NCBI GenBank assembly: GCA_964520505.1 | Contig: CAZFQP010000003.1 | Span: forward strand, 16,738-80,737 | Reading direction: 5' to 3' | Source: an uncultured Candidatus Saccharibacteria bacterium | GTDB taxonomy: Bacteria > Patescibacteriota > Doudnabacteria > UBA920 | DNA length: 64,000 nucleotides | Program-made: the position numbers and the translations under genes | Notes under the pieces: model-generated | What the model was told of the DNA's origin: nothing | The model's input: only the letters and a program-made list of their open reading frames with translations | Database searches by the model: none | Shown: positions 48,244 through 56,260 of the stretch, piece by piece | Layout of the letters: each line of letters opens with the position of its first letter | Numbering within the stretch: position 1 is the stretch's first letter

Positions 48244-48397
48244 AAAATACGCCTCATTGGGAGGTGTATTTTTTAGTGTGCTTGGCTTCAGCTTAACTAT
48301 AAGTTTAGCTGAACGGGGCCGAAGCCCACAAGCACATTTAGAGTTTATATAATATTTTAATTATTGTCAATATTCGCCCCCCAAGCCCTTATTGACC

Positions 48398-48427
48398 AAA
48401 TGGCCAAAAAAATGATAAAATAGTTAA
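48398..48427 (+). promoter_or_regulatory. Promoter TTGACC-17-GATAAAAT for the tRNA-Tyr gene
   Basis: Hexamers 6-7 nt upstream of the tRNA 5' end. Confidence 0.5.
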
Positions 48428-48433
48428 GCGTTT

Positions 48434-48728
48434 GGGCAGGTAGCGAAGCGGTCAAACGCGACTGACTGTGAAAGATTGCAGCTCTTAAAAGAAATTTTAA
48501 GATGTCCTCTCTGGGATAACGGTGAAAGCTAAATCAAATCAAACTGACAAGCTAATACCGTGGGAACCCTGATAATTTATCGGGGAGCGCCGTAGAGACT
48601 AGATACCAGAGTACCTAAAATCTTAAACGATTATGGTAAAGATATAGTCCACCCCTTTTGGAAACATTTGGATAAGTGAAATCAGTTGGCTTATGCCTTC
48701 ATAGGTTCGAATCCTATCCTGCCCACCA
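48434..48728 (+). tRNA. tRNA-Tyr (anticodon GTA) interrupted by a ~209-nt group I intron in the anticodon loop (exon 1 48434-48469, intron 48470-48678, exon 2 48679-48728)
   Basis: Exons reconstruct a class-II tRNA closely matching bacterial tRNA-Tyr (D-loop AGCGGTCAAA, long variable arm, T-arm AUAGGUUCGAAUCCUAU, CCA encoded). Exon 1 ends in U pairing with intron IGS GCAG (U-G), intron ends in G, and the intron contains GTAGAGACTAGA matching the P7/J8-7 core of bacterial tRNA group I introns (e.g. Azoarcus tRNA-Ile intron). Confidence 0.7.
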
Positions 48729-48763
48729 TAAAAAAACTTTCAGAAATCTGAAAGTTTTTTTAT
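48729..48763 (+). terminator. Terminator AAAAAAACTTTCAGAAATCTGAAAGTTTTTTT
   Basis: Perfect 9-bp stem between A- and T-runs. Confidence 0.75.
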
Positions 48764-48963
48764 TAGCGACGTAGAGCGAATCCGTCCCGATTTTATCGGG
48801 ACGAGTGAGCCGAGGAGCTAATATAGGTTAAATACCTCGTAGCTTTGCTACGAAATGCAGTTAACTCCTTGGTGTTAATACCTCGGAGTTCTACTCCGAG
48901 GAACCTTTATTTGTGACAAAAAATAACGACATGACATCAAAGAGATATTGTGAGTCTTGATTT

Positions 48964-48995
48964 AAAACACCGCACAAATTTGTGCGGTGTTTTAA
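48964..48995. terminator. Bidirectional terminator AAAACACCGCACAAATTTGTGCGGTGTTTT
   Basis: 10-bp stem; downstream of the minus-strand tRNA-Thr(GGT). Confidence 0.7.
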
Positions 48996-48997
48996 TC

Positions 48998-49073
48998 TGG
49001 AGCCCACTATCAGATTCGAACTGATCACCTGCTCCTTACCATGGAGCTGCTCTGCCAAATGAGCTAAGTGGGC
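48998..49073 (-). tRNA. tRNA-Thr (anticodon GGT)
   Basis: GCCCACTTAGCTCATTTGGCAGAGCAGCTCCATGGTAAGGAGCAGGTGATCAGTTCGAATCTGATAGTGGGCTCCA; CCA encoded. Confidence 0.88.
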
Positions 49074-55500: not shown

Positions 55501-55567
55501 AGCATAAATTGATTATATCAAAGAAAAACCCTTCCGCCTAAATGGCGGAAGGGTTTTAAAAACAAAA

Positions 55568-56260
55568 TTATTTTTTTTCTTCGGCTTTTGCTTCAGTTTT
55601 GCCCGGCTTGGCATCTGTAGCGGCGGCAGCCGGTTTGTCTTCGGCGGCGCCTTCAACTTTGCTAACATCTTCCACAACCGGAGCGGCTAATTCAGCCTCA
55701 ACGTCGCGAGGAGGCTGAACTTTAACAATCAGCTCTTCGGCCGGAGTAATAATTTTTACTTTAGCCGTAGCCGGTAAATCTTTAATGTGGATTGTATTTT
55801 GTAAAGTTTTTAAGACAGACAAATCAACAGTAATGCTGTGTGGCAAGTCTGCCGGCAAACATTCTACTTCTACTTCGTTTAAAACCTTGACCAAAACACC
55901 GCCAAGAGTTTTTACCGCAGGCGCTTCGCCAATAAATTCCAAAGCTACAGCGGCTTTGAGTTTTTCGGTTAAGCTGACTTCGTAGAAATCTACGTGTGTC
56001 GGGGCGGTGGTTAAATAATGATGTTGAACATCATGAATTAGCACCGGGTGAGTTTTGCCGTCTTCGGTTTGAAGTTCAACAATGGTGCTTTCACCGGCTT
56101 TCTTTAAAATTTTATCAAACTCTCTGGCATCAACTGTTAGGCTAACATTCTGCACTTTGTGTCCGTAAAGCACGGCCGGCAGTTTGCCAATTCTTCTTAA
56201 TTTTTCCGGCTTAGTGGTTTTTAAGTCACGAATCGCCGCTTTTAACTGAAGCTTGTCCAT
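55568..56260 (-). CDS. rplY: 50S ribosomal protein L25 / general stress protein Ctc (long form)
   Basis: N-terminal L25 domain (RRIGKLPAVLYGH) plus Ctc-type C-terminal Ala/Lys/Glu-rich extension; start set at MDKLQL. Confidence 0.85.
   Translation of the reverse strand: MDKLQLKAAIRDLKTTKPEKLRRIGKLPAVLYGHKVQNVSLTVDAREFDKILKKAGESTIVELQTEDGKTHPVLIHDVQHHYLTTAPTHVDFYEVSLTEKLKAAVALEFIGEAPAVKTLGGVLVKVLNEVEVECLPADLPHSITVDLSVLKTLQNTIHIKDLPATAKVKIITPAEELIVKVQPPRDVEAELAAPVVEDVSKVEGAAEDKPAAAATDAKPGKTEAKAEEKK

Follow-up and report, generated by a model that had tools for sequence, protein, structure and literature searches.

The locus described here raises the question of whether a transfer RNA (tRNA) gene that is interrupted within its own anticodon can be a working gene. 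It lies in a 64,000-nt stretch of contig CAZFQP010000003.1 (assembly GCA_964520505.1, an uncultured Candidatus Saccharibacteria bacterium), hereafter called the window, where a tRNA-Tyr(GUA) gene is split by a 209-nt insert. The analysis makes it highly likely that this is an expressed gene of the Doudnabacteria type, split at U35/A36 by a group I ribozyme without an open reading frame (ORF) that undergoes ordinary self-splicing. The exons, the fold with its conservation and covariation, and the splice-site register are established here. The intron of the window is very probably functional, as judged from its sequence, and we infer catalysis and protein-independent splicing in vivo. It is one more example of a published class, since an intron of this kind had been catalogued in 2025-26 for this very site and bacterial class (Nakagawa et al. 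2026, mSystems, PMC13011429; preprint 2025). The gene consists of the following parts.

48434-48469, + strand: 5' exon of tRNA-Tyr, 36 nt, with the 5' strand of the acceptor stem, the D arm, the 5' strand of the anticodon stem, and C32, U33, G34 and U35.
48470-48678, + strand: group I intron without an ORF, 209 nt, matching RF00028 over its full length with 47.4 bits and supported by covariation.
48679-48728, + strand: 3' exon of tRNA-Tyr, 50 nt, with A36, A37 and A38, the 3' strand of the anticodon stem, the long variable arm, the T arm, the 3' strand of the acceptor stem, A73, and CCA (48726-48728).

Joining of the two exons gave a class II tRNA-Tyr(GUA) of 86 nt with an encoded CCA end, for which ARAGORN returned tRNA-Tyr(gta). 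A preliminary description of this DNA had proposed this product with the loop CUGUAAA, and its coordinates were exact. The joined exons show what is expected of a bacterial class II tRNA-Tyr, namely GUA within CUGUAAA, a long variable arm, A73 and a canonical cloverleaf, and they are 79% identical to a natural intron-less tRNA-Tyr of Patescibacteria. The insertion site is between anticodon positions 35 and 36 (CUGU/AAA); the 5' exon terminates in ...GACUGACUGU, and the 3' exon starts with AAAUCAGU (AAAUC). Standard annotation passed over the gene: on the window, the default mode of ARAGORN returned only tRNA-Trp and two tRNA-Thr, and Rfam at gathering thresholds returned the same three tRNAs and nothing at the split gene. 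The intron mode of ARAGORN detected the gene but shifted its boundary. No second tRNA-Tyr was found in the 64-kb window by ARAGORN or Rfam.

The insert was identified using Rfam with permissive filters. The model RF00028 (Intron_gpI) matched 48459-48671 (+) from model positions 1 to 253, which is the full model, with 47.4 bits (E = 5e-11 in a local search and 6.2e-9 over the whole window). The score is lower than the gathering score of 50, and the match was the sole group I match in the window. The group I core pattern occurred once in the window and in none of 100 shuffles. The insert contains GCAG at intron positions 9-12 (48478-48481) and GTAGAGACTAGA at 48592-48603, and its last base is G (48678), as the preliminary description had said. 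No ORF of at least 20 amino acids was found inside the intron (48470-48678). Its paired regions (P), joining segments (J) and loops (L) were assigned as follows.

48466-48481, + strand: P1, in which exon CUGU and intron GA (48466-48471) pair with UUGCAG (48476-48481); the internal guide sequence (IGS) GCAG is at 48478-48481.
48483-48502, + strand: P2 hairpin of 8 bp, with the GAAA tetraloop L2 at 48491-48494.
48509-48514, + strand: 5' strand of P3, CUCUGG, with its partner at 48606-48611.
48519-48561, + strand: P4-P5 domain, with P4 formed by ACGGU (48519-48523) and ACCGU (48557-48561).
48527-48529 and 48551-48553, + strand: P5, AGC with GCU, plus a distal hairpin.
48563-48591, + strand: P6/P6a hairpin with a GG...CC base and a CCCUGAUA/UAUCGGGG stem, of variable length among relatives.
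48592-48605, + strand: J6/7 (GUA), the 5' strand of P7 (G, a bulged A, then GACUA; 48595-48601) and J7/3 (GAUA).
48606-48611, + strand: 3' strand of P3, CCAGAG, which closes the P3/P7 pseudoknot.
48612-48638, + strand: P8 hairpin of 27 nt, the sole helix between P3' (48611) and J8/7 (48639), with no P7.1 or P7.2.
48639-48650, + strand: J8/7 (AAGAUA) and the 3' strand of P7 (UAGUCC), together AAGAUAUAGUCC, which matches the Rfam consensus AAGAUAUAGUC.
48651-48652 and 48676-48677, + strand: P9.0, AC with GU, which encloses P9.
48654-48671, + strand: P9, with a GAAA tetraloop at 48661-48664 and three U·U mismatches in the window copy.
48678, + strand: terminal guanosine (omega-G) and 3' splice site, directly 3' of P9.0.

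The complete P1-P9 fold could thus be drawn, including the P3/P7 pseudoknot. P7 pairs in the window copy, where its 5' strand binds UAGUCC and crosses P3, and the pair G48597-C48649 beside the bulged A is presumably the guanosine-binding pair, by analogy with G264-C311 of Tetrahymena. The preliminary description had read GTAGAGACTAGA as the P7/J8-7 core. The P7 part of this reading stood, as the motif comprises J6/7, the 5' strand of P7 and J7/3, but the J8/7 part did not, as J8/7 with the 3' strand of P7 is AAGAUAUAGUCC.

To place the intron among relatives, a collection of species-representative genomes was scanned once with the P7-core pattern tied to a 3' exon starting with AAATC. Ninety stretches matched, of which 80 were taken as 8-kb loci, and the locus counts rest on those 80. 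For each locus, the 3' splice site was fixed, the upstream 5' splice sites ending in U were enumerated, and the joined products were run through ARAGORN. As a result, at least 59 further tRNA-Tyr(GTA) genes split after the second anticodon nucleotide (35/36) were obtained, with introns of 182-237 nt. They come from at least ten named lineages of Patescibacteria, and their labels include Doudna-, Yanofsky-, Moran-, Magasanik-, Lipton-, Peregrini-/Peri-, Gracili-, Sacchari- and Parcubacteria. A MAFFT alignment of 61 sequences (A2) served as the basis of all pair counts. An assembly artefact was ruled out, because the same architecture recurs in 61 independent assemblies.

RNAalifold, run on this alignment blind to the hand-drawn model, recovered the anticodon stem, P1-P4, P5/P5a, P6, P8, P9.0 and P9, and 36 of the 55 pairs that it predicted showed compensatory double changes. 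In the hand-drawn P1-P9 model, including the P7 pseudoknot, 96.3% of cells were paired, compared with 33.6-42.2% when the 3' partners were slid by 1-3 columns. Double changes occurred in 32 pairs and 424 cells of the model, compared with 13-19 pairs and 57-93 cells when slid, and none of 500 shuffles matched any observed measure of the model. Compensatory changes were found in P2, P3, P5, P6, P8 and P9. They affected all eight pairs of P2, whose loop L2 is of the GNRA type in 59/61; five of the six pairs of P3, in which 100% of cells were paired; three of the four proximal pairs of P8, all 100% paired (e.g., UA 35 / CG 24); and six of the seven pairs of P9, whose loop L9 is GAAA in 57/61. P4 was 99.7% paired and nearly invariant, and a P5 pair covaried between G-C and C-G (49:11). 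The base pairs of P6 were invariant, and the proximal pairs of P6a were 92% paired with compensatory changes. The anticodon stem formed between the exons covaried as well (AU 45 / UA 16). In the window copy, 3 of 51 cells were unpaired, all of them in P9, which equals the family median. With the full-length RF00028 match and this covariation in 61 homologues, the earlier proposal that the 209-nt insert is a minimal group I intron was confirmed.

The splice sites were fixed by the same alignment. The 5' exon ends in CUGU in 61/61 homologues, and the four pairs between exon and IGS (CUGU/GCAG) are invariant in 61/61; the search pattern did not impose them. They include the U·G wobble pair between U35 (48469) and G48478 that marks the 5' splice site, in agreement with the pairing of the last exon U with GCAG suggested in the preliminary description. 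The next pair of P1, at intron position +1, covaries (AU 24, GU 13, CG 5, GC 2), and the register of the 5' splice site is therefore fixed. Likewise, the position of the terminal G is fixed by covariation of the P9.0 pair that lies two bases ahead of it (CG 28, UA 22, UG 9, AU 2). P10 comprises two U-A pairs at most in the window copy, and the bases concerned are not conserved.

Signals that may serve expression of the gene were found on both of its sides.

48392-48421, + strand: promoter-like site with -35 TTGACC (48392-48397), an 18-nt spacer and extended -10 TGaTAAAAT (hexamer 48416-48421).
48728-48763, both strands: perfect palindrome with 17-nt arms, AUAAAAAAACUUUCAGA/UCUGAAAGUUUUUUUAU, followed by U's on both strands, -16.5 kcal/mol, directly after CCA.

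The promoter-like site agrees with the consensus at 10 of 12 positions, has the TG, and ends 12 nt upstream of the 5' end of the tRNA; this match suggests promoter function. The palindrome is probably a bidirectional intrinsic terminator, which the terminator scan did not flag because its stem is A/U-rich. In a relative with conserved synteny (L003; JGI Ga0376277_0000498), the upstream promoter-like sequence is conserved and a similar hairpin follows the same split tRNA-Tyr, whose intron has 219 nt and an RF00028 score of 44.9 bits. Compared with the window, the L003 intron shows pair-preserving changes in P1 (G·U in the window to A-U), P2 (U-A to C-G) and P8 (A-U to G-C); P6 is wholly replaced, and P9 is the same. 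The closest named relative (L001) was uninformative, as it ends just past tRNA-Thr and has no tRNA-Tyr in the remaining 400 bp.

One of the genome loci, L122, carries an intron-less tRNA-Tyr beside the split copy. The anticodon arm of the intron-less copy (GGGGCAGACUGU·AAAUCUGCUGGC) is the same as the predicted ligated junction of the split copy, and 57 of the 62 compared positions match the predicted ligated exons; the mismatch closest to the junction lies nine bases 3' of it. The split gene of L122 (JAQTYG010000007.1, minus strand, from about 1258 down to 825) has a 35/36 intron of 200 nt, and an insert of about 170 nt, bordered by inverted repeats of 14 nt (CCCCTCACTTGCCC / GGGCAAGTGAGGGG), interrupts its T-loop; the remaining outer part of the 3' exon lies beyond the insert. 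This insert holds the complete intron-less tRNA-Tyr(GTA), which has a different acceptor stem. The arrangement could represent a nested or mobile insertion, replacement of the intron-bearing gene, or misassembly of the metagenome-assembled genome (MAG).

From these elements, the following course of splicing is proposed. The precursor would be transcribed from the gene's own promoter, and the intron would fold into P1-P9 with the P3/P7 pseudoknot. The IGS GCAG would pair with C32-U35 of the 5' exon and so place U35 in the U·G wobble, after which an exogenous guanosine held at the G-C pair of P7 would attack after U35. P9.0 would place the terminal G (48678) in the site that the guanosine had occupied, where the 3'-OH of U35 would attack after G48678, so that U35 is joined to A36 and the anticodon loop CUGUAAA is restored. 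The exons would be held together by the anticodon stem of the tRNA rather than by a P10 helix. RNase P would trim the short leader and, with the encoded CCA, a mature tRNA would result.

Several observations weigh against a functional self-splicing intron in the window. The RF00028 score lies 2.6 bits under the curated gathering score of 50. P7, the terminal G and the first five bases of exon 2 were fixed by the search pattern, so their invariance is uninformative and the alignment provides no comparative test of them. The window copy has three consecutive U·U mismatches in P9, and in P5 its strand CAAGC differs from the receptor-like motif that most relatives share. The intron-less tRNA-Tyr in the MAG of L122 means that a split gene need not be the only tRNA-Tyr copy. 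The published self-splicing tests cover no Tyr intron (PMC13011429). The Asp intron validated in those tests lies at about 0.49 from the Tyr set over conserved columns, near the 0.52 of the Anabaena tRNA-Leu intron, and its support for the Tyr lineage is therefore by analogy only. These points were weighed in three alternative explanations.

The explanation that survives best, while still improbable, is that the intron is a genuine group I intron that requires a protein cofactor or an RNA chaperone to splice efficiently in the cell, and so would not be autonomous. Protein dependence in vivo is common among natural group I introns; this one is A/U-rich, and its helices are weak, with one G-C pair among the eight of P2 in addition to the mismatches of P9. 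L2 and L9, in contrast, are conserved GNRA loops accompanied by receptor-like motifs, which suggests a self-stabilised tertiary folding. P5 of many relatives holds GCUAAG/UAUGC, which we take to resemble the 11-nt tetraloop receptor. The intron encodes no protein, and structurally comparable introns of 196 nt and 234 nt at this site, in hosts other than tRNA-Tyr, self-splice without protein (PMC13011429).

It is very improbable that the gene is a decaying pseudogene whose intron no longer splices, with tyrosine decoded by an intron-less tRNA-Tyr elsewhere in the genome. Such a gene would be in keeping with the RF00028 score below gathering, the mismatches in P9 and the coexisting copies of L122, of which the split one is disrupted, and the window shows only 64 kb of the genome. 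The helix integrity of the window copy, however, equals the family median, the orthologue in L003 differs by pair-preserving changes with the same P9, and the promoter, terminator and CCA are intact. Among the 80 genome loci of 8 kb, an intron-less tRNA-Tyr was present in L122 only. In addition, by our own reading of Table S2 and Table 1 of the survey, the only tRNA-Tyr listed for the single complete genome of Doudnabacteria is the split one, and according to the authors of the survey, genes with and without an intron for one and the same anticodon are rarely found together (PMC13011429).

A junction elsewhere in the anticodon loop, giving another class II tRNA, is scarcely credible: ARAGORN in intron mode did call tRNA-Ser(tga) i(35,209), that is Ser(UGA), joining with the 5' splice site two bases upstream gives tRNA-Leu(taa), or Leu(UAA), in many homologues, and such boundary ambiguity is documented for these tools (PMC13011429), but the U·G wobble at U35 in 61/61 with an adjacent pair covarying in that register, the P9.0 covariation that fixes the terminal G, the restored loop CUGUAAA that matches a natural intron-less tRNA-Tyr, and the assignment of a homologue to Tyr 35/36 by BLAST to intron-less tRNAs at 88% identity (PMC13011429) all favor the Tyr junction. 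Self-splicing of a working tRNA-Tyr gene therefore remains the preferred explanation of the locus.

The comparative data also bear on how the intron is inherited. Exon and intron divergence were correlated (Spearman 0.38), and none of 2000 Mantel permutations reached 0.38; because of this correlation and the lack of an endonuclease ORF, the sequences point to mainly vertical inheritance. In Tyr, Asn and Asp hosts alike, the last bases of the 5' exon are CUGU, to which the invariant IGS GCAG is complementary. In Paceibacteria, the Asp and Asn introns at 35/36 lie within the diversity of the Tyr introns (mean distances of 0.32 and 0.36, against a 5-95% range of 0.18-0.38 between Tyr introns), and one published Asp intron is 83% identical to that of the window over aligned columns, hence as close to it as the published Tyr intron (78%). 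By sequence, the Tyr 35/36 intron thus appears to belong to one lineage with the Asn and Asp tRNA introns at the same site. We infer that the confinement of the 35/36 site to tRNAs with GUN anticodons is likely due to the CUGU target that all of them offer to the guide; Nakagawa et al. mention neither the guide sequence nor reverse splicing, queuosine or this host-range logic (PMC13011429).

Taken jointly, and put forward tentatively with a little less than even confidence, these results suggest that the Tyr 35/36 intron is old and mostly vertically inherited across many classes of Patescibacteria, usually sits in the only tRNA-Tyr gene, and forms one GCAG-guided lineage targeting C32-U33-G34-U35 of Tyr, Asn and Asp tRNAs (the queuosine family). 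If so, self-splicing of a ribozyme would be obligatory for decoding every tyrosine codon, and spread among GUN-anticodon tRNAs by reverse splicing would be predicted, possibly also into tRNA-His. That the split gene is the only tRNA-Tyr of the genome in question, as the preliminary description had suggested, is plausible. The Tyr 35/36 introns are widespread in Patescibacteria, compared with one case in the 95 complete genomes of the published survey. A covariation-supported secondary structure for the Tyr lineage is added here (61 sequences; P1-P9.0 except P7); no published structure for it turned up in the literature searched. Genomes of this kind appear to be without tRNA-Tyr because standard annotation (ARAGORN default, Rfam gathering) misses the split gene, and such apparent loss can distort inferences on completeness and codon usage for Patescibacteria. 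The locus is further evidence that ultra-small genomes keep catalytic introns in essential tRNA genes, and it leaves the current picture of group I introns unchanged.

Some of the genomes with split tRNA-Tyr carry doubtful labels. Nine third-party co-assembly MAGs were labelled Gammaproteobacteria or Bdellovibrionales, and these labels are distrusted. In the co-assembly MAGs labelled 'uncultured Gammaproteobacteria', 'Bdellovibrionales' or 'Saccharibacteria' (L064, L074, L098, L106, L121, L128, L134, L118, L120 and L066), the introns are of the Patescibacteria type. Some of them are nearly identical to introns of Magasanikbacteria, Moranbacteria or Doudnabacteria, and that of L066 is at a distance of 0.10 from the published Doudnabacteria intron. 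The taxonomic labels of these MAGs look unreliable.

The Tyr 3' exon start had been added to the pattern of the genome scan because the broader core pattern (GTAGAGACTAGA...GATATAGTCC) was unspecific, matching 54 viral contigs with various hosts. These contigs are from IMG/VR (L005-L058), and 26 of them received a split-tRNA call in the intron mode of ARAGORN, with introns of 178-720 nt. The calls were Leu(taa), 'SeC'(tca), Cys(gca), Gln(ttg), Trp(cca) and a tta 'stop' anticodon, the junctions being ARAGORN calls only. Related group I introns may be common in the tRNA genes of phages, perhaps also in suppressor-like ones. Among bacteria, six loci of Desulfobulbales or Desulfovibrionaceae (L083, L093, L104, L110, L115 and L133) had pattern-matching introns of 230-240 nt in a host that ARAGORN called tRNA-Arg(tct); an Arg(UCU) 34/35 intron class is already given for Desulfobacterota in Table S5 of Nakagawa et al. 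(PMC13011429). A further locus of Desulfovibrionaceae (L116) was called 'SeC'(tca) with an intron of 204 nt. The pattern also matched four Streptococcus suis assemblies, Pseudomonas oryzihabitans, Paenibacillus hunanensis, Parachlamydia, Intestinibacter and Omnitrophota.

The neighbourhood of the split gene consists of housekeeping genes (rpsB, tsf, prfA, truB, ahcY and a gene for a TPR protein). The best named homologues of S2 are from 'Candidatus Doudnabacteria', with 82-85% identity, followed by other Patescibacteria; the organism was placed by these homologues and by the conserved synteny. Further features of the neighbourhood are listed below.

48277-48336: branched and very stable hairpin, -27.2 kcal/mol, z = -4.2, between the terminator (48250-48266) of the upstream 163-aa ORF and the tRNA-Tyr promoter; no shuffle folds as well.
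48765-48995: strong hairpins packed into the 270-nt spacer between the convergent tRNA-Tyr (+) and tRNA-Thr(GGU) (-), including those at 48783-48803, 48837-48853 and 48881-48901 (fold z-scores of -3.0 and -4.7).
48962-48995: perfect 34-nt palindrome, directly 3' of tRNA-Thr.
48998-49073, - strand: tRNA-Thr(GGU), intron-less in the window.
55514-55662, - strand: match to the Rfam model of the ribosomal protein L10 leader, with 39.5 bits below the gathering score of 44, E = 0.007.

The spacer hairpins are probably terminators, though they are more than two genes need, and the match at 55514-55662 may be a genuine divergent rplJ leader. Regarding the adjacent tRNA-Thr(GGU), divergent group I introns at 36/37 of this tRNA occur in some Patescibacteria (Nakagawa et al. 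2026, PMC13011429).

Among known systems, the small tRNA introns labelled IC3 were compared, namely those of cyanobacterial tRNA-Leu(UAA) at 34/35, tRNA-fMet at 33/34, Azoarcus tRNA-Ile and Agrobacterium tRNA-Arg. Like the intron of the window, they are small ORF-less ribozymes in the anticodon loop with U·G at the 5' splice site, a J6/7-P7 of the GUAGAGACU type, P8 as the sole helix between P3' and P7', and P2 and P9 capped by GNRA loops. The window intron may also share the tetraloop-receptor layout of the Azoarcus intron. The architecture of the window intron is compatible with IC3, with no P2.1, P5abc or P7.1/7.2 and with GNRA L2 and L9. Unlike them, however, it has a different insertion site and host tRNA, the IC3 introns are at a distance of 0.52-0.54 from the Tyr set, and the IC3-labelled sequences differ in J3/4-P4 (GAUAACGG vs CAAAUUCGG) and at the start of P6 (GGGAAC vs GCCAAGC). 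Subgroup IA, as Michel and Westhof are said to have defined it in 1990, has the extra helices P7.1/P7.2 between P3' and P8; in the window, only the 27-nt P8 lies between P3' (48611) and J8/7 (48639). The P7 strands are separated by 44 nt in the window intron, against 61-77 nt in IA1-type Asn introns and 27-42 nt in IC3-labelled ones, and the subgroups could not be told apart by rough pairwise scoring against introns labelled IC3, IA1, IA3 and IB3. In the published survey, the label IA was given to 25 of 28 introns at 35/36, and no Patescibacteria tRNA intron was classed IC (PMC13011429). The likeness to the Azoarcus intron seen in the preliminary description thus holds for the architecture only; the J3/4-P4 and P6 signatures differ, with IA and IC3 both in play.

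Two published sources bear on the class. In Williams (2020; bioRxiv 10.1101/2020.01.27.920355), the known classes of tRNA introns had already been raised from 4 to 21. Nakagawa et al., whose survey covered 95 complete genomes of Patescibacteria and 4,934 complete genomes of bacteria, found position 35/36 enriched in Patescibacteria and demonstrated precise in vitro self-splicing for one Asn and one Asp 35/36 intron (PMC13011429). The published Asn(GUU) and Asp(GUC) 35/36 introns of Patescibacteria resemble the intron of the window in their insertion after CUGU, with U at -1, in the terminal G and in being mostly without a homing endonuclease, and they differ in their host tRNAs. The minimal P7-P3'-P8-P7' layout recurs in the validated Asp intron (196 nt), whereas the validated Asn intron carries additional helices between P3' and P7' (61 nt, compared with 44 nt in the window).

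The nearest known system is the Tyr(GUA) 35/36 intron of the Doudnabacteria genome GCA_016699995.1, which appears in Table 1 and Table S3 of the survey (PMC13011429). Because of this entry, the view taken in the preliminary description, that no intron was known in tRNA-Tyr or at this position, is outdated. The entry was published in tabular form only, without structure, splicing test or distribution. This intron has 192 nt, compared with 209 nt in the window, and P2, P5, P6 and P8 differ in length and sequence. The two share the host tRNA, site, bacterial class, IGS GCAG and the core blocks GGGAUAACGGUGAA, AAUACCGUGGGAAC, GCGCCGUAGAGACUAGAUACC and GAAGAUAUAGUCCAC; the introns are 78% identical over aligned columns, the exons are near-identical, and the junctions are identical.

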